Under the pieces are notes generated by a model, which saw only the letters and a list, made by a program, of their open reading frames with translations, was not told where the DNA came from and ran no database searches. Shown here in pieces: positions 17,353-40,415 of a stretch of 56,022 nt of DNA (position 1 is the first letter of the stretch; every line of letters begins with the position of its first letter). Source of the DNA: a virus (Duplodnaviria; Heunggongvirae; Uroviricota; Caudoviricetes). The stretch is taken from positions 1 through 56,022 of IMG/VR virus record IMGVR_UViG_2534681672_000003, one strand, 5' to 3'. A program made the translations under genes and the position numbers.

Positions 17353-18141
17353 TTACGCCAGTTGTACGGACACGAACTCATCAGGGTCAGCCAGCAGCAT
17401 CAGCGGTGCTGACTGAATCATGGTGAACTCACGCGCCGGATCGCCGGTGGTCACCCAGTTTTTCGGGTAGCGGGCAGAGGCGTTAATGCCTTCGCGCTGT
17501 GCGTCCGCATCCTGAATGCAGCCATAGGTGCGCAGACCGCGTGCCTGAGTGTTCCCCAGCACCATCGTGTTGTCCGGCAGGAAGTTCTTTTTGACGCCGT
17601 TTTCCACGTACTGTCCGGAATACACGACGATGGCCACATCGCCATACATTCCCTTATAGGACACCGCTTTGCCCAGGTCTTTTACCGCTGTCTCCAGCTC
17701 GGAATGAGAGCCGCGACGGGTATCCAGCTTCTCCCTGACGGCTTTGAAAGAACGGAACAGCGCCCAGCCTTTCGGATCAAACACGATGATATTCACCACA
17801 CCGCTGGCGTTCAGCGCGTAGGCTTCGATATCGTCTGTCGGGTCATACGTGGACTTGTCACGCTTGCTCCACTCCGTGCCGCCGGACTGCGTGATGTTAT
17901 TCGCCTCACTGCGGCCCATATCCACCTCAACCGGATCGAAGGCTTCACCGGTCATGGTGTATTTGCCCTTAAGCACGGCAGAAACTGCCTGCATCTCTTC
18001 GACCTGAGCAATGGCCAGCTCTTCGTCACGCATGTTCTGCATGATGATGCGACGGCGGCGGTAAGTCGGGTCCGCCAGATTCTGCGGATCTTCATCCGGC
18101 AGGCGACGCAGGGTCATCTGCGGATTCACCTCATGCTTCGG
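17353..18141 (-). pseudogene. E: major capsid protein E, 3' fragment (codons from ...PKHEVNPQMTLRRLPDED to the stop)
   Basis: Lambda E C-terminal two-thirds; upstream reading frame hits a stop immediately past 18141, where unrelated AT-rich sequence begins. Confidence 0.9.
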
Positions 18142-18143
18142 CT
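18134..18143. repeat. left copy of 10-bp direct repeat TGCTTCGGCT (att core or target duplication)
   Basis: Identical 10-mer at 29567-29576; both copies lie in E codons K-P-K. Confidence 0.75.
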
Positions 18144-18220
18144 ACATGAGTCAAATATGAAAGGATGTGAATGATTTGATTACGTTTTAGCTATAGAATT
18201 GAAATGGAAAATCCTTGAAT

Positions 18221-18240
18221 GCAATACAACGTGCAATACA
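18221..18240. promoter_or_regulatory. candidate integrase arm-type site GCAATACAA-CGT-GCAATACA (left arm)
   Basis: Same motif in the same orientation at 29419-29438 near the other junction. Confidence 0.5.
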
Positions 18241-18277
18241 TGGATGAAAACCATCACTCATTTAACAAGAGGAATCT

Positions 18278-19183
18278 ATGCGCTCACCCAACAGAATGCA
18301 TGAACGCTCAACATTTTATAAGTATATGTCGTTGAATACCGCGAAGATTGTTCTTGATTCATGCAGCCTTAGATGGAGTTCTCCGGTCCTATTTAATGAC
18401 CCTTTTGATGTTCCAAGAGAAGTTATGCCTGGTATTAACGAAATTAATATTGGCAAAGCTTTAGCCCGCAAGTTAATAGCGGAGTTGATTACCCCCAGAG
18501 AAGACATACAAAATTTAAACCCTAGAATTAGAACAATGCTAAGTGATTTCCAAAAGTCATTTCCTTTAGGCATACCCGCAGGATTAATTGAAAGATTTCA
18601 AGAAATGGTAAACATTCCACCAGTTGGGATTGGCGCTCCTGCGGCAATACAAGAAATGAAAGATGTCTGGCGAGGAATGCTTAATAACAGAAGGATTTTG
18701 TGTTTATCTGAGAGCCCTATAATCACTCCTATGTGGAATCACTATGCCGATAAATATAAAGGTATAGTTATCGAATTTGATTGTGTAGACTTTCTGGATA
18801 GCGCTTGGTTAATAGCCAAACCTATGAAATACACAGATGAAATGCCTCTAACTCACACTGCTGAAGGGATGGCCGAGTTGCTTTTCATGCCAGACAATAA
18901 GTCAATTGAATATATCAATAATGAGATAATATTCATAAAAACAGAAGAATGGGCATATGAAAGAGAGTGGAGAATTTCAACCTACGCTAGGCCAAATAGC
19001 ACTGGTCAATATAGCGACTTAAAATTTCACCCTTTTGAGTTAAAATCTGTAATACTTGGTCCTCTTTTTGATGCCAGCGAGTTCGATGAAGTCGCATCAC
19101 TAGTTAAGATGTATCCAAGAGCGAAATTATTTAAAAGTTCATTTGGGAACGACAGAAAAATATCCATAGTACCACTACCTTAA
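18278..19183 (+). CDS. DUF2971 family protein (AT-rich cargo; candidate anti-phage function)
   Basis: N-terminal YKYMSLNTAKIVLDSCSLRWSSPVLFNDPFD matches the DUF2971 signature as recalled; AAGAGG RBS; low GC. Confidence 0.65.
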   Translation: MRSPNRMHERSTFYKYMSLNTAKIVLDSCSLRWSSPVLFNDPFDVPREVMPGINEINIGKALARKLIAELITPREDIQNLNPRIRTMLSDFQKSFPLGIPAGLIERFQEMVNIPPVGIGAPAAIQEMKDVWRGMLNNRRILCLSESPIITPMWNHYADKYKGIVIEFDCVDFLDSAWLIAKPMKYTDEMPLTHTAEGMAELLFMPDNKSIEYINNEIIFIKTEEWAYEREWRISTYARPNSTGQYSDLKFHPFELKSVILGPLFDASEFDEVASLVKMYPRAKLFKSSFGNDRKISIVPLP

Positions 19184-19223
19184 AAGGTCAAATGCTTTTG
19201 ACAAATAAAATCTATCGCCAGTT

Positions 19224-19240
19224 TTACTGGCGACTTTTAA
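19224..19240. terminator. bidirectional hairpin GCCAGT-TTT-ACTGGC between convergent genes
   Basis: Inverted repeat between the DUF2971 stop and the nu1-like stop. Confidence 0.45.
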
Positions 19241-19289
19241 GCAACAAAGAACCACCTAAGCACTCTTCCTACCTATGGTTTCATTTGTT

Positions 19290-19841
19290 TTAACTTCGCT
19301 GATTATCCTTGATATACCTTTCAGCCATATCTGGAATGTTATCTGAGATCTGGTAAGCTCGAATAAATGCTTTACTGACCTCCATCTTAATGAAGTCCTG
19401 ATACCGTTTTCCCATGCCAGGAAACTGTCGACAGATCGCAAGTGGAAGACTATCAATGATTGCTCCAACTTCCCCAGTTAATTTCGACAAGGCATAAGTC
19501 GCAAATGCAGTGTCAATTACCTCACCTGTTTCGCTGGCATTCTTCAGTTCCTGTGCGTCGGCCTGCGCACGCGTAAGTCGATGGCGTTCATACTCAATAG
19601 TCCCTGGCAGGAGATCTGCCTCGCTGGCCTGCCGCAGTTCTTCAACCTCCCGGCGCAGCTTTTCGTTCTCAATTTCAGCATCCCTTTCGGCATACCATTT
19701 TATGACGGCGGCAGAGTCATAAAGCACCTCATTACCCTTGCCACCGCCTCGCAGAACGGGCATTCCCTGCTCCTGCTAGTTCTGAATGGTACGGATACTC
19801 GCACCGAAAATGTCAGCCAGCTGCTTTTTGTTGGCTTCCAT
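19290..19841 (-). pseudogene. nu1-like small terminase subunit paralogue with in-frame TAG at codon 22 (possible restart at Met27)
   Basis: First two-thirds nearly identical at DNA level to helper nu1 (35283-35828) except TGG to TAG at 19776-19778; C-terminal third diverged. Confidence 0.7.
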
Positions 19842-19859
19842 TGTTCATTCCACGGACAA

Positions 19860-20060
19860 AACCAGAGAAAGGAAACGACAGAGGCCAAAAAGCCTGTTTT
19901 TAGCACCTGTCGTTTCCTTTCTTTTTAGGGGGTGTTTTTAATAAAAACATTAAGTTACGGCGAAGAAGAACGGAAACGCCTTAAACAGGAAAATTTTCAC
20001 AAATAGCGAAAAACTGCGCGCCTGACGCCCCGTAGCCTGTCAGATCGCCGGAAAGGACCC
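19860..20060. other. element cos site (cosB-like R-site sequences plus variant cosN at about 20019-20030)
   Basis: Aligns to helper cos at 35838-36030; flanks conserved, 12-nt overhang positions differ. Confidence 0.65.
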
Positions 20061-20086
20061 GCCAGCCAGAGCGGGCCCTAATTTCA

Positions 20087-20470
20087 TCAACCAATCAGCT
20101 TATAGCGACCATCCCGTGCATTGCGGCGTACACGCTCAATCTTGAGGCATAGCGCCGCATCTGGCTTTTTTGGGACAGGTACGCGGCAATATTCAGAAGC
20201 GCGAGGAATATTATTTATCCAGTCGATCACTTCACTTAAATACCAGGCCTTACGCCCTTCCGTAACCTGCACACGCTCCGGGAACTCTCCACTAGCCTCA
20301 AGGTTTAGCAGTGTACGACGACTCAGGGTTGTAATTTCCATCACCTGATTCATATCAACAAGGCGCTCGCTTAAACACATTTTGTCAGCGATAGCTTTTA
20401 ATTCCTCTACAGCTGGATTCGGGTACATCATTTCGGCAATTGGCTTAAGGTCATTGTAATCATTCTGCAT
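20087..20470 (-). CDS. AlpA/Xis-type HTH DNA-binding protein
   Basis: Motif TTLSRRTLLNLEASGEFPERVQVTEGRKAWYLSEVIDWI; AGGGGG RBS; last gene of the capsid operon, ending about 57 bp from cosN. Confidence 0.6.
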   Translation of the reverse strand: MQNDYNDLKPIAEMMYPNPAVEELKAIADKMCLSERLVDMNQVMEITTLSRRTLLNLEASGEFPERVQVTEGRKAWYLSEVIDWINNIPRASEYCRVPVPKKPDAALCLKIERVRRNARDGRYKLIG

Positions 20471-20481
20471 TGTATCCCCCT

Positions 20482-20823
20482 TTACACACGAGCCAGCGGC
20501 TGAACAGAAATACCTGAGCCAACAAACGCTGCAACCTTTACTGACAGTTCTTTAACAGACTCAGGCCAGTTCAGAGCATCAACATTTAAGACACCTGTCT
20601 TATAGACCTGAGCCTGTGTTTTTTTCGCGGTGTCGATTTGTACAGCGGAAACATAAACCGCTTTACCTACGCTCGAACCATCCCATACCACCAGTGCACC
20701 TGTTGCATCTTCCTGCATCAGTGGCGTAAATGCAGGAATTACCCCTTTATTAGCTGAAAATATCCCCAGCGTAGTCACCAGTGCTTCAGTGCCAGCCATG
20801 AGTTCAGTGTAATGAGTAGCCAT
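20482..20823 (-). CDS. head decoration protein, lambda D-like
   Basis: Alignable by eye to helper D (TPLM, WDG, YK-G, WPE, AF-G-IS shared); AGGGGGAG RBS. Confidence 0.7.
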   Translation of the reverse strand: MATHYTELMAGTEALVTTLGIFSANKGVIPAFTPLMQEDATGALVVWDGSSVGKAVYVSAVQIDTAKKTQAQVYKTGVLNVDALNWPESVKELSVKVAAFVGSGISVQPLARV

Positions 20824-20832
20824 TGCTCCCCC

Positions 20833-21873
20833 TTAGCCAATGCGAACGGTAACAAAACGATTGATGCGGGCCGGTATTGGCTGTGGTGCTGAATGTGTCT
20901 GCACATATTCAATAGCCGGATCACCAGGCACAATATAGTTTTTCGGTGCAAGTTCGGCTTTAGTCAGCCCCATTCGGATTAGCTCCGGATCCTGAATACC
21001 GCCATAGGCGACAATCCCCTGAAGAGCCGTATTGCCAAGCACCATCAAATCAGGATCAAGGAAATGTTTTTCTGTTCCGTCCTCGTCGGTATAACGCCCG
21101 CTGTAAACAACAATCGCAACATCGCCCATATACCCTTTAAAACTCACCGAATCACCAAGGTCTTTAAGGGCCGTTTCCAGTTCGGAATTAGAACCACGAC
21201 GGGTATCCAAAGCCTCTTTTATCGCTCTGAATGAACGGTATTTCTTCCATACATTACCACCCATAATGATGATATTAGTGACGCCCTCACTAAATTCTGC
21301 GTAGCTCTCAATATCATCATTTGGATCAAAAGTTTCTTTATCCTTACCTGACCACTCAGTACCGCCAGACTGAGTGATGATATTTTGTGGTTTTATATTC
21401 CAGTCCAGCTCATAACGTTCAATACCATCGCCCTCAATGATATTTTTCCCCGTTGTGATAGCCTGAACAGCAAGCCATTCAATACGTGCACGAATAGCTT
21501 TAGCCTGATTTACAATCGCCTGTTTAACTTTAATATTACGCGCCCCAAAAGCATTGTATTGCTCAGGTGACACACCAGCAGGGCGCACAGCTAACTTATT
21601 TGGATCAATGCTGCTTTTCGGCTTCATATAACCTGGACGAATTGTTTTTGATTCGTATCCCTCATCTCGTGAAACTTTACTGCCCACCATAGGAGAGCAA
21701 AACGCCGCGATCGGGATATTTGGATCGTCGATCGTATCAAGAATAATGTCTCTCGATTCAAACATTACCGAGCGAGTGAAAAACAAACTGGTAAACAACG
21801 CATTTAATTTTTTTTGTACATCTACAGCATTAACCACCTGTACAAGCTGAGTAGGCGAATATAAATCAACCAT
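20833..21873 (-). CDS. major capsid protein, lambda E-like (HK97 fold)
   Basis: 346 aa, alignable over the full length to helper E (ITQSGGTEWS, ALDTRRGSNSELETA, DVAIVVYSG shared); start trimmed to the ATG after AAGAGG. Confidence 0.8.
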   Translation of the reverse strand: MVDLYSPTQLVQVVNAVDVQKKLNALFTSLFFTRSVMFESRDIILDTIDDPNIPIAAFCSPMVGSKVSRDEGYESKTIRPGYMKPKSSIDPNKLAVRPAGVSPEQYNAFGARNIKVKQAIVNQAKAIRARIEWLAVQAITTGKNIIEGDGIERYELDWNIKPQNIITQSGGTEWSGKDKETFDPNDDIESYAEFSEGVTNIIIMGGNVWKKYRSFRAIKEALDTRRGSNSELETALKDLGDSVSFKGYMGDVAIVVYSGRYTDEDGTEKHFLDPDLMVLGNTALQGIVAYGGIQDPELIRMGLTKAELAPKNYIVPGDPAIEYVQTHSAPQPIPARINRFVTVRIG

Positions 21874-22074
21874 ACGCATCCTCTTTGCATTCATTAAAAA
21901 TAATTGTGGATATATGCTATCACCGATATTTGTCATGCGAACACATGCAACCGAGTGCAATGTTGTATAAAGTTTTGGGGTGACAACTTCAGTGCGGACA
22001 ATTAGTGTTAATATCTTCACTCCCTTTGGTCGGGATTTATGTAGCATGCAGGAAAATTTATTTTTTCCGGCCTT

Positions 22075-22792
22075 TTTGTGCACAGAAAACCCCCAGCTAG
22101 GCTGGGGGTTCCGGAAAGCTTTCAGCTTTGAGCCAGTTATTAAAACCCCTTTTGATTTGTTAAAACACTTTGCGGTCTGGCAACTGCAAGTGTCAAACAA
22201 GAAATCAAAAGGGGGTCCCAATGGGGAACGAAAAGAGCTTAGCGCACACCCGATGGAACTGTAAATATCACATAGTTTTTGCGCCAAAATACCGAAGACA
22301 GGTGTTCTACAGAGAGAAGCGTAGAGCAATAGGCAGTATTTTGAGAAAGCTGTGTGAGTGGAAAAGCGTACGGATTCTGGAAGCTGAATGCTGTGCAGAT
22401 CATATCCATATGCTTGTGGAGATCCCGCCCAAAATGAGCGTATCCGGGTTTATGGGATATCTGAAAGGGAAAAGCAGTCTGATGCTTTACGAGCAGTTTG
22501 GTGATTTGAAATTCAAATACAGGAACAGGGAGTTCTGGTGCAGAGGGTACTACGTCGATACAGTGGGTAAGAACACGGCGAAGATACAGGATTACATAAA
22601 GCACCAGCTTGAAGAGGATAAAATGGGAGAGCAGTTATCGATTCCCTATCCGGGCAGCCCGTTTACGGGCCGTAAGTAACGAAGTTGGATGCAAATGTCA
22701 GATCGTGTGCGCCTGTTAGGGCGCGGCTGGTAAGAGAGCCTTATAGGCGCATTTGAAAAACCTCCGGCTATGCCGGAGGATATTTATTTTAT
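22075..22792 (+). mobile_element. IS200 insertion sequence
   Basis: IS200-type TnpA flanked by terminal hairpins (about 22087-22110 and 22771-22789); boundaries approximate. Confidence 0.8.
22221..22679 (+). CDS. tnpA: IS200 transposase TnpA (Y1/HUH)
   Basis: MGNEKSLAHTRWNCKYHIVFAPKYRRQVFY... matches IS200 TnpA as recalled; trimmed to the ATG at 22221. Confidence 0.92.
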   Translation: MGNEKSLAHTRWNCKYHIVFAPKYRRQVFYREKRRAIGSILRKLCEWKSVRILEAECCADHIHMLVEIPPKMSVSGFMGYLKGKSSLMLYEQFGDLKFKYRNREFWCRGYYVDTVGKNTAKIQDYIKHQLEEDKMGEQLSIPYPGSPFTGRK

Positions 22793-22801
22793 TGGCAATA
22801 T

Positions 22802-23251
22802 TTAAAACGGGATATCATCTCCCCATTGCTCATTATCTCCCACTGGTGGCTGGCTTCCTTGCTGATCTGCCTGTTGTTTTGCTCTGTTCAGTGCGTCAGT
22901 AGCCTGCCCCTGTTGGCCTTTATTGCCGCCCGGTCGCACCGATCGCGCACTGATTACGCTGTCTGCGATAACCTGCCAGCCCTGCCGCGTTTCGCCGTTC
23001 TGTCCAGTCCACTGGCTCATCTGCATGTTACCCGCCACGCTCAGGAGTTCGCCTTTGTGATGCTTTGCCAGCGCGTCGGCTTGTCTGCCAAACGCCAGGA
23101 CAGATAACCACATCGTCGCCTGACCGTCATCCGACTGACTGCAGGGCAGTGATACCGCCATACGCGCCAACGTCATGGGGGTGCCCTTGCTGGTCTGTTT
23201 TGTCTGCGGGTCGTCCACCGACCGCCCGTAAACTGATATTTGCGCCGTCAT
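22802..23251 (-). CDS. SSB-like protein with C-terminal DDIPF tip
   Basis: Ends ...NEQWGDDIPF (SSB acidic-tip motif); glycine/glutamine-rich linker; AT-skewed neighbourhood. Confidence 0.5.
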   Translation of the reverse strand: MTAQISVYGRSVDDPQTKQTSKGTPMTLARMAVSLPCSQSDDGQATMWLSVLAFGRQADALAKHHKGELLSVAGNMQMSQWTGQNGETRQGWQVIADSVISARSVRPGGNKGQQGQATDALNRAKQQADQQGSQPPVGDNEQWGDDIPF

Positions 23252-23493
23252 GCGGCCTGCTCTCCGGACTTAATATTGATTGTTGTCACTTCCTCCGCTT
23301 CAGCAATCTCCCGTTCGGTCAGAGTGGCAAAGTTTGCAGCCGCCGTTGTCATGAATGCGCTAATCAGTTCGGGATGTGCTTTCGCGTATCCTTCCCCGGC
23401 GTTGCGGTCGATGATTTTTATCGACACCCTTAACCAGTGTTCCGTCAAATCAAGGGCGTGCGATTGTGATTTTTTTGTGTGCTTCGCTGTCAT
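23248..23493 (-). CDS. hypothetical protein
   Basis: 81-aa ORF, stop overlapping the SSB-like start. Confidence 0.35.
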   Translation of the reverse strand: MTAKHTKKSQSHALDLTEHWLRVSIKIIDRNAGEGYAKAHPELISAFMTTAAANFATLTEREIAEAEEVTTINIKSGEQAA

Positions 23494-23538
23494 AGGCTTT
23501 ATCTCACAGCAGTAAATTAAAATTTTTGCGTTTTAACC

Positions 23539-23770
23539 CTTCACCTGTTCACCTTTTGATATTTTCTCTTTTAATTCATAATGTTAATGGGTGAACAGTT
23601 TCACAAAAACTATTCACCAACTGTTCACCACTGTTCACCCTTGAAGCTCAATAAACAATCAAAAAGGTGAACAGTGAATAGTTTGGTGAACAGTTCATAA
23701 ATAACTGTTCACCCTATAATATACTGATATAAAAGATATTTATGACAGGGTGAACAGTGGTGAACAGTTA
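23539..23770. repeat. replication-origin iterons, about 9 copies of TGTTCACC / GGTGAACAG in both orientations
   Basis: Octamer recalled as the P4 alpha binding site at ori/crr; lies directly downstream of the primase-helicase gene. Confidence 0.7.
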
Positions 23771-23780
23771 TTCCATAAGT

Positions 23781-25601
23781 TTAATTTTTGCTATCGTCAT
23801 TAGTGACCGATACACATGATGGCATCCAGTCTTCTGATTCCTCCGTCAGGGTCACGTTTGAACGCAAACCGTGCTTCGTTTTCCGTTTCATATACTCCCT
23901 GCCATATTCCGCCATTGCCCCCGGCATATCTTTACCGAAGCGCGTCAGTGTTACAGGTTTACCAAACCCATGTGCCCTCATATAAGCCAGATAGGCATGA
24001 TAGAGATACCTGCGTGGGCTGAATGGCACAATTTCAGCATTACCCACTAACAGGCCATCACACATTACCGATGCCATGAGATAACCGCAGAAGTCCACCA
24101 GCGAATCCCCCTCTCGCTTTATCGCCAGTGCTTCTTCAGATTTCTGCTGCTCATATAACAGGCGTCTGGCTTCGTCCTGATCAGCAAACCTTGTAAGCAG
24201 ATGACGAATCACTACCGCCAGCTCACCTTCTATTTTTTCCGCCAGCATCGAATCGCGTTCGTTCTCCGGTACAACTTCCGAAAAATTGAATATCACCCGA
24301 CGACGTGAGATCCCCCCGCTGCGGTCACTGAATGACATGGCGTTATTGTTAACCGCCAGCACTACTGCCGGAATACGCGTTGAATAGGGGGCTTTGTGTT
24401 TCGGGTCAATTGCCACCTTGTCACCGCCTGTAATGGCCTTAATCCCTGCCCCATCACCAGCGTAGCGGGTCATATCCGGCATGATAATCAGCGAAAAGCC
24501 AACCACTAACGCACGTTCCCTTGCATCTTCCAGCGCCTTCATGCTTGCTGATACTGTATTAGCCTTACCCGCCAGCATGGTGCAAATCTCCGCCATCACA
24601 CTTTTACCACTTCCCCCCGGCCCTGTTACCTCAATGAATAACTGCCAGTCGTACCGGTTCGCCAGCACCATGAATAATGCCGCCAGTACGCGATCTGCCT
24701 TGCGGTCATTCTCAGCCACCGAACGGCGCAACCACTTCCAGAAATTCGGCGCATGTGTTGCCAGCGTTTCCCCCTCTGCTGGTGGGCTGAAAGGTAATTC
24801 ACTGGCAATTAACAACCAGTCGTTTTTGTTATGCTCCCGAAAGTTACCAGTTCTGGTATCAAATACCCCGTTACTGAATCCAATCAGGTTACGGGCTGTA
24901 TTCCCCATTACAGGCAAACTTAACTTCATGGTATCTACCGCCGATTTAATAGCGTTCTGCGAATAGCTGATCTCCGCATCAATGAAAATCTGCGCCATAG
25001 CACGCTGTAACTCTTTATCCTGAACCGGCTCCCATACAACGCCGTTGTAATGATGAACGGTGTCAGAGTCGGCATTGATTGCCAGTTCGCCGCCGTAATG
25101 TGCAAGGAGAACTTCACCGCGCTGGCTGGCCCCCATCTGATTCAACGCCAAAGATGAAGCACGCTCGTCATTTTTGCGCTCAGCCTTCTTCACTGGCAGT
25201 TCAATCACCAGACTTTCCCCATGCTCCGCTTCAGCTTTTAGGCCGACAAGGCGCGGAGTCCAGTCTTCAGGCTCTCGATCAACAAAGCTACGGTAACAAC
25301 GTGCTTCCTTTACGCCTGCAATAGCAAGTAATGTCGCAACCTTCGTCAGACTTTTCTCTGCAATCTTTCCGGCACGATAAACACGCACATAATGACGGCC
25401 TTCATCGATAATTTGCATATCATCCAGGTTTTCCAGTTGTTCCGTACCCAGAATGACTGGTGGTGTATCATCTGCTGCAATATGCTTACCTGCCCATTCA
25501 TTCCATTCTTTTGCATGGCTCCAGGCATCACTGCCAGCAAAAATGATGACTTCCGTCATTTTGTCGCGCGGTTGGTATTTTAAGTTCGGAGCACGTTTCA
25601 T
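23781..25601 (-). CDS. replication initiation primase-helicase (P4 alpha-like, P-loop NTPase)
   Basis: Walker A VTGPGGSGKS; 606 aa; GGAGG RBS; adjacent to the iteron origin. Confidence 0.65.
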   Translation of the reverse strand: MKRAPNLKYQPRDKMTEVIIFAGSDAWSHAKEWNEWAGKHIAADDTPPVILGTEQLENLDDMQIIDEGRHYVRVYRAGKIAEKSLTKVATLLAIAGVKEARCYRSFVDREPEDWTPRLVGLKAEAEHGESLVIELPVKKAERKNDERASSLALNQMGASQRGEVLLAHYGGELAINADSDTVHHYNGVVWEPVQDKELQRAMAQIFIDAEISYSQNAIKSAVDTMKLSLPVMGNTARNLIGFSNGVFDTRTGNFREHNKNDWLLIASELPFSPPAEGETLATHAPNFWKWLRRSVAENDRKADRVLAALFMVLANRYDWQLFIEVTGPGGSGKSVMAEICTMLAGKANTVSASMKALEDARERALVVGFSLIIMPDMTRYAGDGAGIKAITGGDKVAIDPKHKAPYSTRIPAVVLAVNNNAMSFSDRSGGISRRRVIFNFSEVVPENERDSMLAEKIEGELAVVIRHLLTRFADQDEARRLLYEQQKSEEALAIKREGDSLVDFCGYLMASVMCDGLLVGNAEIVPFSPRRYLYHAYLAYMRAHGFGKPVTLTRFGKDMPGAMAEYGREYMKRKTKHGLRSNVTLTEESEDWMPSCVSVTNDDSKN

Positions 25602-25885
25602 TTGTTACCTCCGGCAACTAACATTGCCCGAATTTTACGGATATAGCCTGCGGCACGCCTCTGATTATCTGTCTTGCAATTTTTTACCAGAATGAAATCT
25701 CTTTCGAACTGCTGACGCGGCATAACACATTCAAAATCATAACCATCACGCAAATAAGAGACACGACGATCATCAACCGAAATAATCTTTACCCGATAGC
25801 CATAGCTGTCTTTGAAAATATCCCCAAGGCTGATTTTTGAATGAGTTTGACCGCTGGCAATAAAGCCAGAAAATTTATTTTTCAT
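25598..25885 (-). CDS. hypothetical protein (replication operon)
   Basis: 95-aa ORF with ATGA overlap onto the primase start. Confidence 0.4.
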   Translation of the reverse strand: MKNKFSGFIASGQTHSKISLGDIFKDSYGYRVKIISVDDRRVSYLRDGYDFECVMPRQQFERDFILVKNCKTDNQRRAAGYIRKIRAMLVAGGNK

Positions 25886-25888
25886 TTT

Positions 25889-26113
25889 TTATTCTCCGGT
25901 ATAGCTCTGGTCGTGTATTTTTATAGCTTCATCCAGCTCTTTGATGACAGGATCAAGTAACGTAATTAACGCTCCAGCTAAATTAGCATCCCGTTCATCG
26001 TGTTCCGCATTTGTTGTCCCATCAAGCCAGGTTGATAAGATTTCTCGCATATTTTTGCCACAAACGAGCGCGTTTTCAGCATGTGTCAGCACTTTAAAAT
26101 AAAGATCATTCAT
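25889..26113 (-). CDS. hypothetical protein
   Basis: 74-aa ORF in the same operon. Confidence 0.35.
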   Translation of the reverse strand: MNDLYFKVLTHAENALVCGKNMREILSTWLDGTTNAEHDERDANLAGALITLLDPVIKELDEAIKIHDQSYTGE

Positions 26114-26471
26114 GGCACACCTCCTGACGAATACGGGCGGCGAATATCATCACGTAGCCAGTTGGGAATTGCTGGCGGGCTTCCTGTTCGCTGGCGGCCT
26201 CGATGTGTATTACGCGTGGTTGTGCGGTGCTCAGGGCGATAAAACGCCAGATGAAATTGTTTTCGCATTTCTGAATAAACAGCGTGTTTTCTTCACGCCC
26301 TTTCCAGAAAGCCGCAGTATAGCCCATCTCCTTAACCATCTTGCGGGCATCAACCAGCGTGTCAGCGGCAACATGTACCGTAGTTGCTCCATCTGCCATG
26401 CGGTCGTGGTGTAGTGCCAGAAAGGTGTATATAAATTTAGGGTGAGTTTGGGTATGCTGTGTTCCAGCCAT
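26106..26471 (-). CDS. hypothetical protein, first gene of the leftward operon
   Basis: 121 aa from the ATG after a GAGG RBS; the longer ORF-track version runs antisense through the neighbouring gene and was trimmed. Confidence 0.45.
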   Translation of the reverse strand: MAGTQHTQTHPKFIYTFLALHHDRMADGATTVHVAADTLVDARKMVKEMGYTAAFWKGREENTLFIQKCENNFIWRFIALSTAQPRVIHIEAASEQEARQQFPTGYVMIFAARIRQEVCHE

Positions 26472-26554
26472 AATCGTTACCTCGTTTAACGGTTTGGTTA
26501 GAAGCCCGGTTAGTGTTCGCGCACTGCCGGGTTTCGTCGTTTTTATGAATCGAT

Positions 26555-26670
26555 CATTGTGAGATACATAGCGACCATGATGTGAGATATACATTATAAT
26601 GTGGTGATATACATTGCAAGTGTTTTTATATCTCACTTTTGTGTATAGTGATATACACATAACAAATTGG
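26555..26670. promoter_or_regulatory. divergent promoter/operator region with repeated GTGAGATA(T)ACAT and GTGATATACA motifs
   Basis: At least five direct and inverted copies between the divergent operons. Confidence 0.6.
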
Positions 26671-26679
26671 TGATTAACT

Positions 26680-26982
26680 ATGTCTGTATACAAAAATGCA
26701 AAATCGCAAATGACAACGATCAGGGTTCCCCACGATGTTATGGAGGGCATGGAATCCGTAAAACTGGACGGCGAAAGCAACGCCGGATTCATAGTAACCG
26801 CCATGCGCGGTGAGATCGCCCGCCGCCAGGCAGAAGGAAGCGGAGAAAATCCCCTCGTGTCTTCACTGGATGCCTTAGCTAAGGTCGAACAAATCGGCAT
26901 CAAGGCAGCGGAGGAAATCGGGCAACTCGTAGCCGTCGCTCGTGAAGAACTCCAGCGGCGTAAAGCCAAAGAATCTGAATAA
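26680..26982 (+). CDS. putative ribbon-helix-helix (CopG/Arc-like) regulator
   Basis: TTIRVPHDVMEGMESVKL...NAGFIVTAMRGEI fits a strand-helix-helix pattern; sits beside the operator repeats. Confidence 0.4.
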   Translation: MSVYKNAKSQMTTIRVPHDVMEGMESVKLDGESNAGFIVTAMRGEIARRQAEGSGENPLVSSLDALAKVEQIGIKAAEEIGQLVAVAREELQRRKAKESE

Positions 26983-27332
26983 TTACTATCAGCGCCGTGA
27001 TGTGAGTAACTACGGCGCATTGCTATGTAAATACTGGCAATAAACAGAAAAGGTAGTTCTACTCCGAATAATTTTATCTGACACTACTCCTGAACTAACA
27101 TGCGCTTATCTTACAGGATATAAATATAGATCCATAAAATCACGATTAAATAAAGCCGCTCCAAACATAAACCACACCCAACGCTTAACAAGATAGCAAC
27201 AAACAGATAAATAACTTGCAGAAATATTTATCGCAAGGATTATCATTATTAATTACAAATCACTTTACCAAGTCATTCCCCTCTCTTATCATAAAGAGAA
27301 AGTAATAAATAAGTTAAGGGAGTTAGAATACT

Positions 27333-27869
27333 ATGAATCTAAAAAAAATAGCCACAAACATAAAAAACAAGATAATAGAAACATTCAATAAACTTATATT
27401 AGAGGCATCTAAAACCCCCACACAAGATGAAATTAAAATACTTGAGAGAAGAAGTAAAAAGTTTAATTACTCCTTTTTCTCATACGCAGTCACAGGAGCC
27501 ATAATGGTTTTTTGCTCTCAACCATTAATAAAATACGCAAACCCAATGCTTATTTTATTGAGTGGTCTGTTACTGTCTATCATCATTATCCTTCTCAGAA
27601 TGATTTATATTTCACAAGCGAATGCATCATGGACAACCAAAAAACGTTCACATGTACTAGTTCATTTTCTTTCTGCATGTTTCATAGCGTCAACATTGAC
27701 GTTGTTATATCAGGCTTACGATAATAACATCACACACAAATTGTACTGTAAAAATATACAACAACTTATTGAAAAAAGGATAGAAACAGAAAAAAATATC
27801 AGCATATTCAGTGGGATGCAATGCACCCCGGCATATGATTACTCTTTATTTGGATTTAATCTCTTATAA
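27333..27869 (+). CDS. AT-rich membrane protein (cargo, unknown function)
   Basis: 178 aa, hydrophobic segments, very low GC, preceded by about 300 bp of AT-rich DNA. Confidence 0.5.
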   Translation: MNLKKIATNIKNKIIETFNKLILEASKTPTQDEIKILERRSKKFNYSFFSYAVTGAIMVFCSQPLIKYANPMLILLSGLLLSIIIILLRMIYISQANASWTTKKRSHVLVHFLSACFIASTLTLLYQAYDNNITHKLYCKNIQQLIEKRIETEKNISIFSGMQCTPAYDYSLFGFNLL

Positions 27870-27938
27870 AGAATGTTATTACTGATTTGAGTGCAAATTC
27901 TCAAATCAGTAATTCATAATATTTTATTCTGAGATAAT

Positions 27939-28166
27939 TTAAACTACCCACTCACCTCGAATCCATGCCTGCACTTCTGAAAGACGATATGCAACAGCAG
28001 TGGAGCCAATCTTGATCCGCTTAGGAAATTTCCCTTCCTTCTCCAGCTTCCAGCGTGTGCTGTTCGCAAGAGTGGTTAGCTCCCGACATTCTTTCTCACG
28101 GATCATACGATCGATGTTAGGAATGTACTCCAAACCCTTTTTATCAACAATCGCCATTTTTTTCAT
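27939..28166 (-). CDS. alpA: AlpA-family transcriptional regulator/excisionase
   Basis: 75 aa with AlpA-type HTH (LTTLANSTRWKLEKEGKFPKRIKIG); directly downstream of int. Confidence 0.75.
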   Translation of the reverse strand: MKKMAIVDKKGLEYIPNIDRMIREKECRELTTLANSTRWKLEKEGKFPKRIKIGSTAVAYRLSEVQAWIRGEWVV

Positions 28167-28167
28167 G

Positions 28168-29403
28168 TTAACCAGCCTTTTGTTTGAGGATTATCACTTT
28201 TGAATCAGCACCTGCGATGCTATTGAGATATGTAGTCCAGAGTTCCAGAGCATCCAGTTTTTTAGCCATAAACTTACTCCGGTTGTAAACACCTGCCACG
28301 CCAGGTAGCGCATGGCCTAACAGTTGTTCTACTACATAAAATTCAACACCGAGATCACTTAGATGAGTAGATAGCGTTCTTCTAAGGTCGTGTAGTGACC
28401 ATTGTTTTTCATGGCCCAAACGTTTACCGATTTTCCCCCCAATCTTGCTTACGCTTTCTCTAATTCGCAGACTTCCCAGCACATAACCAGTATGTTTTGT
28501 CTCTTCGTGAACATCCGTTACCCACTGTCGTAGAATTTCAGGTACTGGTCTGACGATTTCAACACCAGTTTTTGAGTGATCTTTTGGTACCGTCCAAACC
28601 CAACTTTCGAGATCCCATTCGCTCCATTCAGATAATCGGGCTTCACTCATTCGACATCCAAATACTGTACAAAGCACAAACATTTTTCGCGTGTATTCAG
28701 ACATTAGTTTTAAATCAGGCTCGACAAAAATTGCCTTCCAGAGCTGGCCCAGTTCGGCTTCATCCAGAACCCGATCCCGCTTACCTGCAATCTGCCCCAC
28801 ATCACTCATGCGCAAATCCTTTAAAGCATCACATGTCGCGTACTGGCGTACCCGACAAAAACGAAGAGCTAATTTAGTGTCAGAAAAAACATACGCCGCC
28901 ATAACTGGTGCATTACGTTTAATTCGGTCAAAACAGTCCAGCCATTCATATAGGTGAGTGTCATTTACAGGCAAATGACCGATATAGGGAAAGATATGCT
29001 TTCGAAATCTGCCAAGCGTTACAGCATGAGTTTTACGACGCACCTTACAGTAATTTTCATACCAGTAATTTAGTGCATCCTCCACTGTGACCGGCTTTAA
29101 GCGTTCTTCAGCCTGAATCTTAATCTGGATACGCGGATCACGTTTGTCAGCCAACCAACCACGGCACTCGTCGCGCTTTTCCCTTGCCTGTTTGAGTGAC
29201 ATATCAGGATATTTACCCAACGTTAGCCAGACCGGAGCAGCCCGGCCACCTGCTAACCTGTAGAAGAAAACAAAGCTCACAGCCCCCTTGGTACTCACAC
29301 GAATAGAAAGCCCCTTTCCATCAGCAATGGTGATCTGCTTTTCTCTGGGTTTCCCCAGATATCCTTTAAGCGCTTTGTCGCTCAGTTTGTTCTCGCCAGC
29401 CAT
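28168..29403 (-). CDS. int: tyrosine integrase, P4/CP4-57 family with N-terminal arm-binding domain
   Basis: N-terminus LSDKALKGYLGKPREKQITIADGKGLSIRVSTKG; C-terminal HDLRRT...LLGH...Y catalytic motifs; trimmed to the ATG at 29403. Confidence 0.85.
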   Translation of the reverse strand: MAGENKLSDKALKGYLGKPREKQITIADGKGLSIRVSTKGAVSFVFFYRLAGGRAAPVWLTLGKYPDMSLKQAREKRDECRGWLADKRDPRIQIKIQAEERLKPVTVEDALNYWYENYCKVRRKTHAVTLGRFRKHIFPYIGHLPVNDTHLYEWLDCFDRIKRNAPVMAAYVFSDTKLALRFCRVRQYATCDALKDLRMSDVGQIAGKRDRVLDEAELGQLWKAIFVEPDLKLMSEYTRKMFVLCTVFGCRMSEARLSEWSEWDLESWVWTVPKDHSKTGVEIVRPVPEILRQWVTDVHEETKHTGYVLGSLRIRESVSKIGGKIGKRLGHEKQWSLHDLRRTLSTHLSDLGVEFYVVEQLLGHALPGVAGVYNRSKFMAKKLDALELWTTYLNSIAGADSKVIILKQKAG

Positions 29404-29418
29404 TTTTAGCCCCAAAAA

Positions 29419-29438
29419 GCAATACAAGCTGCAATACA
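29419..29438. promoter_or_regulatory. candidate integrase arm-type site GCAATACAA-GCT-GCAATACA (right arm)
   Basis: Matches the left-arm motif at 18221-18240. Confidence 0.5.
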
Positions 29439-29566
29439 GAGATGATTGCAACACACAGATAACGAGGAAAATTCAGTGAAAGCGCCAGATAAACTTATTC
29501 TTTATTATCAAAAGATTAAGTGTAAAAACCAGCAACTACACGAAAGCCTCAGAAAGCCATGCTAAG

Positions 29567-29576
29567 TGCTTCGGCT
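29567..29576. repeat. right copy of 10-bp direct repeat TGCTTCGGCT
   Basis: Identical to 18134-18143. Confidence 0.75.
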
Positions 29577-29811
29577 TGACATATCCCGGCGTAAATTCAG
29601 AGGTGGAGCCGCCACGGGAACGGATAACCTCACCGGAAACAATCGGCGAAACGTACAGCGCCATGTTTACAAGTCCCGGAATTTGTGAGAGATAGACTTT
29701 CTCCGTAGTGAAGGGATAGCTCTCACGGAAAAAGAGACGCAGAAACAGCGGATCAAACTTAAATTTCTGCTCATTTGCCGCCAGCAGCTGGGCGGTTGTG
29801 TACATCGACAT
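29567..29811 (-). pseudogene. E: major capsid protein E, 5' fragment (MSMYTTAQLL...GYVKPKH)
   Basis: Lambda E N-terminus; frame leaves E sequence right after KPKH at the junction. Confidence 0.9.
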
Positions 29812-37283: not shown

Positions 37284-37777
37284 TGCTGACCCCACAAACA
37301 GATTTCACGCTCAATCTCACGACGAGTCATGAGACCTTTCCATTGCTTACCGCCAGCATATGTCCAGCGACGTAGCTGATCACATGCGCCTTTGATATCG
37401 CCCTGGTTTATTTTGCGAAGAAGCGTCGATGTTCTGAAATTGCCAGCGCCCACGTTGTAAACGAACGAGTAAAGAGCGCCGCGCGTTGTTTCCGGTATAT
37501 CAACTTTTATGTACGGGTTAATTTGTCTGGCGACCGTGGCAAGGTCTTTATTCAGGAGGGCTTTGCATTCTGCTTTGGTATACGTTTTACCGAGCATGAT
37601 GTCTTTTCCTGTATGCCCGTGACATACAGTCCATACACCAACAATATCTTTGTATGGTATGTAGCTGACACCCTCCAGACCATCGTTACCACTTGAGCCA
37701 GTGATTAACACTGATGCTATAGCAATTGCTCCGCCACCAATAGCAGCAGCAACGGCTTTTCGTAATGATGGAGGCAT
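37280..37777 (-). CDS. R: SAR endolysin (phage 21 R-type lysozyme)
   Basis: N-terminal signal-anchor-release segment [20 protein letters not shown] and lysozyme core, matching R21 as recalled, not lambda transglycosylase R. Confidence 0.88.
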
Positions 37778-37992
37778 TATTCACCTCTCGCAGCCTTGCG
37801 CTTATCTTCTTTAATCTTGAAATAAAGGTTTGTCAGGTACGTCAGCAAGCCAAATACCAAGCTACCCAGCACACCTATTGCTGCCCACTGTGAGGGCGTG
37901 ACTTTATCGAGCAGCTGTAAAAACCAGTAGCCAGCACTGCCTGCGGAGGTGCCGTAGGCAATGCCCGTTGTTAACTTATCCATGGATTTCAT
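37777..37992 (-). CDS. S: pinholin S (phage 21 S21-type, dual-start MKSM)
   Basis: 71 aa with two TM segments; MKSMDK dual-start motif as in S2171/S2168. Confidence 0.88.
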
Positions 37993-38180
37993 AGCCTCAC
38001 CTCCGCAAATAACGGATGGTGTACACGGTTCGGAACGAAGAGGAAAGGTATAGAAGTTACATTAGCGTAAGGCTTGAACATCTATTCAAAAAGAAAAACG
38101 CCAGCGATTATTCTGGCGTAGCTGAAAGCATCATACAATTATTAAATACGAAAATTACAAAATCATTAAAACGCATCACG

Positions 38181-38921
38181 TTACATCATGTCTTTTTCTA
38201 AAAAAAGTCTTGATGAATATTGATGGGGAGGAACACCAAAATATCTTCTGAAAACACTTACAAAATATGACGTGTTTTCATAACCGCATATCTCAGCAAC
38301 TTTTCCAACAGAATATAAATTGTAGCTTAATAACCTTTCCGCCATCACCATTCGCTCTTCAAGAATTAACTTACTAAATGATAAGCCTTCGTGCTTTAAT
38401 TTTCTTTTTAACAGACTTTCACTCAGATACAGTCTTGAAGATATATCACAAAGTCTCCATGCTGCAGATATATCCGTGTGAATAATAGCCTTAACTTTAC
38501 TTCCTAAACTATTAAGACATCCAAATAAAAAACTTTGCACTATTTTCTCTGAAGATAAGATAGCAAGACATGCAAGTGATATTTGATTTCTAACAAAATC
38601 CACAGTTCTGCCATCACAATTCAAGCATGCAATCAAGTTCTTTAACAATGAAAAATCTTCACATTCCACCATCAAGTATGCCGGATAAAACCTTCTTACA
38701 GAAAAAGGTGAGAGTGTGTTGCTTTTAAAGAAATCATTAACTGTTTTCTCTTCAACATCTACGATCATTACATGATCTATATTTGATGAAAAAAAATCTT
38801 TTAAATTGTAATCAATGAGAACAGCACTTCCTTTTTTAAACAAAATATCTTCTTTACCAATTCGGACATCAAACGAGTTCAACACCAAAATGATAGAACA
38901 TATGTATGGCATATTATCCAC
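38181..38921 (-). CDS. AraC-family transcriptional regulator (AT-rich moron between Q and S)
   Basis: C-terminal AraC HTH (VGKVAEICGYENTSYFVSVFRRYFGVPPHQY); low GC. Confidence 0.8.
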   Translation of the reverse strand: MDNMPYICSIILVLNSFDVRIGKEDILFKKGSAVLIDYNLKDFFSSNIDHVMIVDVEEKTVNDFFKSNTLSPFSVRRFYPAYLMVECEDFSLLKNLIACLNCDGRTVDFVRNQISLACLAILSSEKIVQSFLFGCLNSLGSKVKAIIHTDISAAWRLCDISSRLYLSESLLKRKLKHEGLSFSKLILEERMVMAERLLSYNLYSVGKVAEICGYENTSYFVSVFRRYFGVPPHQYSSRLFLEKDMM

Positions 38922-39263
38922 CTGATATCATTGGGGTTACACCAGGTAAGTATAGGTGGAAAATCAATATTCGCCAGTTCAACAATAAGGAAAATCTCAT
39001 TGCATCACAAGTATAAAATTATGTATTTAACTCACAAAGACAAATTATTAAACCAATCTGTTATATTATATATAGCTGCGTGGAATCATAATATTATATA
39101 TTTTGACTGGCATGTTTACCAACTTTAAGTTGCATCTCAATGGTTTCTTCAGCGTAAACAGAGTTTTTATACAAACTGACACTCTGGGTATCATAGTGTA
39201 GTTTTTACGATTGTAAATATCTTGCATGCAGGAACTCATCCTTTTGGATGATATCGCATACAA

Positions 39264-40223
39264 TTAATTTACCATCAGTCTTAGAGCCAGTTCGTCCGGA
39301 TAGGGAGCGAAGTAATTCTGTGTAAGCAAGTAATCATTAGGATACTCACCCAGATAATGCTTCAGCAGAGTCAACGGCGCAAGAAGAGGTAATGTGCCAG
39401 AACGATAGTTAAGTATAACCTCGCTCAACTCTTTACGCTGGCGTGTACTTAAGTAGTTACTAAAATACCCCTGTATATGCATCAGCACATTCGTGTGATT
39501 TTTACGTGATGCAGGTTTTCTGAGAATCGCCATCAGCTTATCACGATACACCTCAAAGTATGATTCAAGGTCCGCCCACTCGTGTATTGCAGCCACAAAT
39601 GGTCCCATATCTTTATAGCCTGCCTGACTATGCGCCAACAACTGAAGCTTATAACGACTATGAAAAGCTAATAACTCTCTTCTTGATAATTTCTCCTTGT
39701 AAAGGTGATTGAGCTCATGCAAAGCAAAAACTCTTTCAACAAAATTCTCACGAAGCACTGGATCATGTAATCGCCCATCCTCTTCAACCGGTAGCCAGGA
39801 AAACTTTTCCATCAAAGTGCTCGTAAATAGTCCCACTCCATCTTTACGACCTCGATTACCATTTTCATCATAGACACGCACGCGCTCCATGCCACAGCTG
39901 GGAGATTTAGCACAAACCACAAACCCCGATACATCCTTTAATTTGTCCATATAAGAACGACTAAACTCTGTCATTCTCTCTGTCACATCCTCATTCTGGT
40001 CGTGGCTGAAACACATCCGTATATTTCCTTGCGTCGAGCGCACAAGACGTAGAGCAGGACGCGGAACTGGCAGCCCTATAGCCATTTCCGGACATACTGG
40101 TCTGAATGTTACCCATTCCACTAATTTGTCCATTAAAAAGTCAGCTCTTTTGTGACCACCATCAAAACGAACAGCAGAGCCGGCCAAACAACCGCTGATT
40201 CCAATCACAGGTTTTTTTATCAT
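39264..40223 (-). CDS. DUF523/DUF1722-type protein (moron)
   Basis: N-terminal VIGISGCLAGSAVRFDGGHK resembles the DUF523 signature as recalled. Confidence 0.5.
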   Translation of the reverse strand: MIKKPVIGISGCLAGSAVRFDGGHKRADFLMDKLVEWVTFRPVCPEMAIGLPVPRPALRLVRSTQGNIRMCFSHDQNEDVTERMTEFSRSYMDKLKDVSGFVVCAKSPSCGMERVRVYDENGNRGRKDGVGLFTSTLMEKFSWLPVEEDGRLHDPVLRENFVERVFALHELNHLYKEKLSRRELLAFHSRYKLQLLAHSQAGYKDMGPFVAAIHEWADLESYFEVYRDKLMAILRKPASRKNHTNVLMHIQGYFSNYLSTRQRKELSEVILNYRSGTLPLLAPLTLLKHYLGEYPNDYLLTQNYFAPYPDELALRLMVN

Positions 40224-40415
40224 ATTCTCCCCCTTGACTAATTCATTAACACATAAACTGTGTAGTGCACGGAATAAATTGCCTTTCTGGCGTCATCACT
40301 GACAATTTTTCTGTTATAGACTATTCCTAATATAGTATGAAAGTTCTTTAAGTGATCGGTCGTAATCATCTATCTTTCATACTTACTCTCAACTATCAAA
40401 AGTACAGGATTTATT

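Follow-up and report, generated by a model that had tools for sequence, protein, structure and literature searches.

A DUF2971 gene in a variable slot of a helper-embedded phage satellite of Escherichia coli: a candidate single-protein anti-phage system

A phage satellite lodged in the capsid gene of a lambdoid prophage carries, at its very edge, a lone AT-rich gene that runs against the satellite's late operon, which raises the question of what the encoded protein does and why it is carried there. Here, we describe this gene, its family and its surroundings in a window of 56,022 nucleotides (the whole stretch of DNA that was analysed; IMG/VR record IMGVR_UViG_2534681672_000003), which is identical to sequence of the E. 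coli SCU-102 chromosome (NZ_CP051753.1). [quoted passage not shown]

The satellite and its cargo gene

The satellite occupies 18144-29566 (11.4 kb) and interrupts capsid gene E of a lambdoid prophage, which is full-length and sits at the DLP12 (argU-ompT) site (Table 1). Exact repeats of the 10-bp block TGCTTCGGCT on its two sides place the first base of the element at 18144. Joined together, the two fragments of gene E have a length of 1026 nt, equal to that of lambda gene E (341 codons plus stop). The minus-strand genes of the satellite encode an integrase, an HTH protein, an Icd-like protein, a primase, an SSB, a lambda-E-like capsid protein, a decoration protein, an AlpA-like HTH protein and TerS. 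A doubled motif, tGCAATACAacgtGCAATACAt, lies at 18220-18241 with its near edge 81.5 bp from the centre of the core, and its twin at 29418-29439 lies 132.5 bp from the centre of the other core. The doubled motif tGCAATACAnnntGCAATACA at these two distances fits the published signature of HE-PICI type 11capE, which has been reported 201 times in gene E, with an identity block of 10 bp and motif distances of 81±2 and 132±2 bp (PMC10111431). [quoted passage not shown] It shares with the published type the 11.4-kb length, the position in gene E, the 10-bp block, the doubled TGTATTGC motif at 81.5/132.5 bp and genes for int, HTH, primase, SSB, its own capsid, decoration and terS; in the copy studied here, an IS200 element has also inserted and terS is interrupted by a stop codon. 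EcCICFT073, which carries homologues of the capsid and decoration genes, is a relative of the element (PMC6092414). Given the 11capE signature and this kinship, the genomic context was already known. At least two distinct prophages, located at different sites of the chromosome, carry the DUF2971-bearing satellite.

Table 1. Coordinates of the cargo gene, its flanks and the ends of the satellite in the window
Feature	Coordinates	Strand	Comment
Capsid gene E, 3' fragment (helper prophage major capsid)	17353..18143	-	interrupted by satellite
att core, cargo end of satellite	18134..18143	.	10-bp identity block TGCTTCGGCT; exact repeat
attP arm and cargo 5' region	18144..18277	+	carries weak promoter candidate and doubled HE-PICI motif
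Shine-Dalgarno-like AAGAGGA	18267..18273	+	read from sequence
Cargo gene, DUF2971 / PDC-S31	18278..19183	+	301 aa; predicted ADP-ribosyltransferase fold; invariant K15, Y156, E228-x-E230, R232
Hairpin, cargo/terS intergenic	19214..19234	.	9 pairs
Satellite terS (small terminase, Nu1 family)	19290..19841	-	internal stop at codon 22; converges on cargo
Satellite tyrosine integrase	28168..29403	-	element end opposite cargo
att core, second copy	29567..29576	.	TGCTTCGGCT; exact repeat
Capsid gene E, 5' fragment, far side of satellite	29577..29811	-	same gene E

The 301-aa gene named in the original prediction is real and conserved, with homologues of about 300 aa that align across 98-100% of the query and a dN/dS of 0.14 against the Enterobacter copy, which indicates purifying selection. 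The RefSeq model of the protein (WP_001117802.1, 252 aa) begins at 18425, probably 49 codons late, as the length and coverage of the homologues and their conserved N-terminus favour the start at 18278. In an alignment of 50 sequences, conservation across residues 1-48 is among the highest in the protein, with H8, K15, Y16, W33-S34-S35-P36, N40-D41-P42, D44, P46 and R47 invariant; of this N-terminus, WP_001117802.1 omits the invariant K15 and the WSSP and NDP motifs.

Most of what had been said of the setting also holds. The ribosome-binding site, described as strong, is a good one, its GAGG core being separated from the ATG by 5 nt. G+C content is 37.1% in 18144-19289 (1146 bp), against 45.2% in the remaining element and 56.7% in the late region of the prophage, and the open reading frame lies 134 bp from the 10-bp core of the att junction. 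The 134-bp and 106-bp flanks of the gene contain no partner or antitoxin open reading frame, in line with its description as a single gene, and the gene does converge with the minus-strand packaging gene terS across a hairpin. The 81 nt that include this hairpin (19180-19260) have a folding energy of -19.9 kcal/mol (z -4.3); the hairpin is terminator-like on the minus strand, where a T-run follows, and just 4 T follow it on the plus strand. An Rfam search of the cargo region returned no RNA family match. No clear sigma-70 or other consensus promoter was found upstream of the gene by a simple scan and a scan by hand, the best candidate scoring 8/12 (-35 ATGATT at 18171-18176, 17-nt spacer, -10 TAGAAT at 18194-18199).

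Several features elsewhere in the satellite were recorded. The in-frame stop in terS falls at about 19776-19778 (..IRTIQN*QEQG..) and recurs in the S1bESBLb copy, which carries DUF2971 in a different prophage. The terS gene looks chimeric, its C-terminal part being common to the Enterobacter satellite and its N-terminal half differing there; the N-terminal part presumably resembles lambda Nu1. A copy of IS200C, with the SSB gene of the satellite on one side and its capsid gene on the other, lies at about 22088-22800 (tnpA 22221-22679). It contains an Rfam STnc490 RNA (22088-22211, 144.6 bits) and is missing from the satellite in S1bESBLb. Repeats of the GGTGAACAGTT type, 29-nt palindrome-like units at spacings of 95 and 74 bp, cluster at 23590-23778, downstream of primase, and are probably an iteron-type replication origin of the satellite.

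Family membership and predicted fold

The cargo protein matches Pfam DUF2971 (PF11185) with 40 bits against a cut-off of 22 (E 1e-9). The family had originally been assigned from a remembered N-terminal signature; the membership was correct and the placement was not, as the match spans residues 152-233 and the full profile (1-89), and the conserved N-terminal motif, which is real, lies outside the model. All 50 aligned homologues match DUF2971, and none of them carries a second Pfam domain at E≤10 (DarT and AbiGi included); there is thus no fused effector, a possibility that had been raised with the original assignment. All five PADLOC PDC-S31 profiles match, as a stand-alone gene (best E 2.5e-32, residues 9-289), as does PHROG 1762, a viral protein family whose function is not known (E 1e-68), and no NCBIfam model matches the protein. 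A scan of 1.84 billion cluster representatives yielded 5961 relatives at E≤1e-3, with 996 reaching 1e-10 and 123 reaching 1e-30; among the best 150 of the 5961, nearly all are single-domain proteins of about 300 aa with near full-length matches. Searches of phage genomes gave no match to the cassette by megablast and six weak partial matches only by tblastn. Plasmids yielded 510 distant DUF2971 genes by tblastn, all at less than 31% identity, and Lactococcus is absent from the best 40 of these records and from the ten genera named. The protein is predicted to be soluble, with a pI of 6.2, and has no signal peptide or transmembrane segment. No partner gene recurs across the neighbourhoods of five homologues. 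One homologue has a HEPN_AbiV gene next to it, with an integrase nearby in one of three contigs shown; another lies beside Ogr/Delta and integrase genes, and others among ordinary chromosomal or housekeeping genes.

The statement that the function of this family is uncharacterised is outdated, DUF2971 now being a predicted ADP-ribosyltransferase (ART) domain and one member having been validated for defence. Aristaios, a 316-aa protein from Lactococcus plasmid pUCCL641_199 with DUF2971 as its sole recognisable domain, gives phage resistance with an abortive-infection phenotype when cloned alone, and its structural model is ADP-ribosyltransferase-like (PMC11381338). The cargo protein is likewise about 300 aa long, encoded by a lone DUF2971 gene and predicted to have an ART fold; unlike Aristaios, it comes from an E. 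coli phage satellite rather than a Gram-positive plasmid, and the two are linked at the level of the Pfam family only. The subfamily of the cargo protein has an N-terminus of its own (MRSPNRxHxR...FYKY...LRWSSP.LFNDPFDVPRE), with Lys at the presumed motif I. PDC-S31, also a single gene, has the status of a computational candidate, and a literature search found no published experimental test of it.

An AlphaFold2 model built with 50 homologues (pLDDT 93.6, pTM 0.85) predicts an ART fold for the cargo protein. By structure comparison of the model, the closest folds include DarT toxins, and SopF, the TreX Rhs toxin, scabin, CARDS, and diphtheria-like and pertussis-like toxins are also named. Foldseek of the model against the PDB returned nothing significant, with DarT only at E 0.4-0.9, and searches of solved structures with the single sequence and with a 50-sequence profile returned nothing relevant and no DarT. 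Residues K15, D41, D44, M152, W153, Y156, G162, A180, Y185, K221, E228, E230, R232 and G261 are invariant in homologues down to 24% identity. In the model, E228-x-E230 falls at the end of a helix and the start of a strand, E230 being the first residue of the predicted beta-strand; this is the usual site of the ART ExE motif, and the two residues would form that motif as judged by position. Y156 belongs to the MW.HY helix. The first strand has the sequence FYKYMS, in which the invariant K15 places Lys, not His or Arg, at the presumed motif I, and helical inserts are modelled at about 55-137 and 195-228. A 2025 survey placed DUF2971 in the H-Y-E ART clade next to DarT; it found the motif-I His to be poorly conserved and the Tyr strictly so, and also described an ExE and a pair of large helical inserts (PMC12522546). 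The alignment of the cargo family agrees with that survey on the conserved Tyr and the ExE, and the model agrees with it on the two inserts.

The most likely target of the protein is nucleic acid, a suggestion drawn from the fact that the closest folds act on nucleic acids; the pI, which is not basic, adds no support for nucleic-acid binding. The cargo protein differs from DarT of DarTG in having no sequence-level match to the DarT family, no DarG macrodomain antitoxin nearby (its neighbours are the capsid gene fragment and terS), about 90-100 additional residues in the form of the helical inserts, and Lys in place of the motif-I His. With the RNA 2'-phosphotransferase Tpt1/KptA, the ART lobe alone aligns, at 13% identity. 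The catalytic set of Tpt1 is Arg/His and not the Y/ExE constellation.

A variable cargo slot in related satellites

The slot beside the attP arm is variable and holds defence-type genes, as a TIR or an AbiJ-like protein replaces DUF2971 in related copies of the satellite. Across 5426 E. coli genomes, the slot holds DUF2971 in 33, TIR_2+DUF3298 in 16 (MLI106K1, 22KM0354) and an AbiJ-like Abi_C protein in 41 (strains 550, RM14723). The TIR and AbiJ-like genes have the same position and the same orientation as DUF2971, and the sequences diverge by cargo type directly past the doubled motif. Most of the 33 genomes have an intact DUF2971 gene, with at least 80% of the cassette present at 99.8% identity or higher in 32 of them and a 39% fragment only in the other. 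At least 85 of the 5426 genomes have a detectable capE left junction and the cargo counts sum to 90, both being approximate counts from separate searches, so that the slot seems nearly always filled. No gene occupies the slot in relatives that have the same late module at clpS, smrA and portal gene sites.

The same cargo occupies the same slot in an HE-PICI of Enterobacter sichuanensis, with 88% protein identity. The cassette DNA of the two satellites (18278-19183 in E. coli; 8001-8906 of locus L007 in Enterobacter) is 88.9% identical, compared with 71-73% for the backbone HTH and decoration genes, which points to a recent exchange of the cassette between diverged satellites.

This arrangement resembles the defence hotspots of P2 and P4, where unrelated anti-phage genes interchange at a fixed position (Rousset et al., 2022; PMC9122126), and differs from them in belonging to another family of elements and in lying at the end of the late zone, abutting the attP arm, within the helper prophage. 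Another study reports defence systems on PICIs (PMC11364771). In a search of its text, the HE-PICI paper proved to use the word 'defense' once, in passing, and to make no mention of cargo, TIR, DUF2971 or abortive infection (PMC10111431). What we add here is a slot on the opposite strand beside the attP arm that holds DUF2971, TIR or AbiJ-like genes, which is a modest addition; it fits an established picture, in which phages and satellites carry defence hotspots, widens that picture and overturns no current ideas. Satellites buried in prophage capsid genes would, through the capE slot, also carry defence genes between strains and between genera.

Proposed function and alternatives

The original prediction had called the gene a candidate anti-phage or helper-interference factor, and the anti-phage part of this is the one strengthened by the PDC-S31 match, by the TIR and AbiJ-like genes that alternate with it and by Aristaios. 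We infer both the anti-phage activity and the biochemistry of the protein from several lines of evidence. The DUF2971 score above cut-off, the PDC-S31 match and the single-domain relatives of about 300 aa connect the protein to a defence-associated family; the confident model, the residues that stay invariant to 24% identity and the position of E230 at the opening of a strand suggest an enzyme; and the alternative genes of the slot, the Enterobacter copy, the HEPN_AbiV neighbour of one homologue and the mostly intact state of the gene all favour defence. Against this reading stand the tie to Aristaios through the Pfam domain only, the non-significant Foldseek result against the PDB, the lack of a sequence link to DarT or AbiGi, the Lys at motif I, the lack of an antitoxin to restrain a toxic ART and of a convincing promoter, the homologues that sit among ordinary chromosomal genes, and the pI.

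As an anti-phage system, the gene would be transcribed on its own, in opposition to every satellite and helper late gene, and a promoter in the attP arm would keep the protein present in the lysogen. Infection by a foreign phage would then provide some trigger that frees the enzyme activity. The closest folds and the invariant residues suggest that E228-x-E230 would be catalytic, with Y156 stacking on nicotinamide and K15 standing in place of the motif-I His. The enzyme may carry out NAD+-dependent ADP-ribosylation of nucleic acid, either of ssDNA like DarT or of RNA ends like Tpt1, a protein target being less likely. Replication of phage and cell would halt, with an abortive-infection outcome by analogy with Aristaios. 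Should the protein prove active, it would provide the first example of DUF2971 / PDC-S31 defence in E. coli, a host whose phage panels and genetics put the trigger and the ADP-ribosylation target within easy reach, and a case of natural defence by an ART that works without an antitoxin.

A more speculative extension, which we consider unlikely, gives the orientation of the slot a role in control. The protein would be a stand-alone DarT-like nucleic-acid ART with a K-Y-ExE site and no antitoxin, and helper late transcription would silence the defence gene by antisense only when the helper of the satellite itself is induced. This is proposed because all three cargo types oppose helper late transcription, which must cross the satellite to reach the tail genes; such transcription is expected to resist terminators, as Q-modified transcription does in lambda. 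The cell would in this way abort foreign phages and spare its own helper and satellite.

Other functions for the protein would have to account for the same evidence. One is that of a passenger with a non-phage function, which could be an enzyme of the stress response, an ART effector that is secreted or an ART-like protein with no catalysis. About 18% of DUF2971 proteins are predicted effectors, and the family has associations with other operons (PMC12522546). The housekeeping neighbourhoods of some homologues and the Lys that replaces the motif-I His also fit such a passenger, yet purifying selection and the invariant ExE argue for an active enzyme, and the lack of a signal peptide or transmembrane segment, the PDC-S31 and PHROG 1762 matches and a slot common to TIR and AbiJ-like genes speak against it. 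We judge a passenger role to have a small chance of being correct.

The helper-interference part of the original prediction is the weaker of its two halves, and we regard it as rather improbable. On this view, the target would be the helper lambdoid phage, whose DNA or packaging proteins might for example be modified, with output biased towards satellite particles as a result. Against it, the gene opposes the whole satellite late operon, with which it is consequently not co-regulated, and alternates with generic defence proteins (TIR and AbiJ-like); moreover, sister satellites with the same late module have the slot empty, and homologues occur outside satellites too. In its favour are the location of the gene on a PICI beside the packaging genes terS, capsid and decoration, and the interference genes known from PICIs (PMC6092414).

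Most doubtful is an addiction module, in which post-segregational killing by an ART or NADase toxin would keep the satellite or the composite prophage stable, with the satellite itself or an unannotated small RNA restraining the toxin: DarT toxins are among the closest folds and an AT-rich cassette at an element edge is typical of toxin-antitoxin cargo, but this reading is set low because no partner was found, either as an antitoxin open reading frame in the two flanks or as an RNA family match in the region, and the single-gene rule holds, with no recurring partner in the five neighbourhoods and single-domain relatives among those listed.

Two further AT-rich regions were noted away from the cargo gene. 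In the early ('Bro') zone of the satellite, a second opposite-strand pair lies on the plus strand at 26680-27869 (32% GC) and consists of a YlcI/YnfO-family open reading frame and a 178-aa open reading frame, the latter with no Pfam or PADLOC match. The position of this pair is taken in sister satellites by HicB+SWIM, HicB+DUF5677 or a TIR protein, and it may be a second variable slot. In the prophage, the region at about 37600-40400, from the Q antiterminator to the lysis genes, contains lipocalin, YbgA-family and HTH-domain genes that do not look phage-derived, and G+C content falls to 33% at 38001-39000. The position between Q and the lysis genes is a frequent moron site in lambdoid phages.
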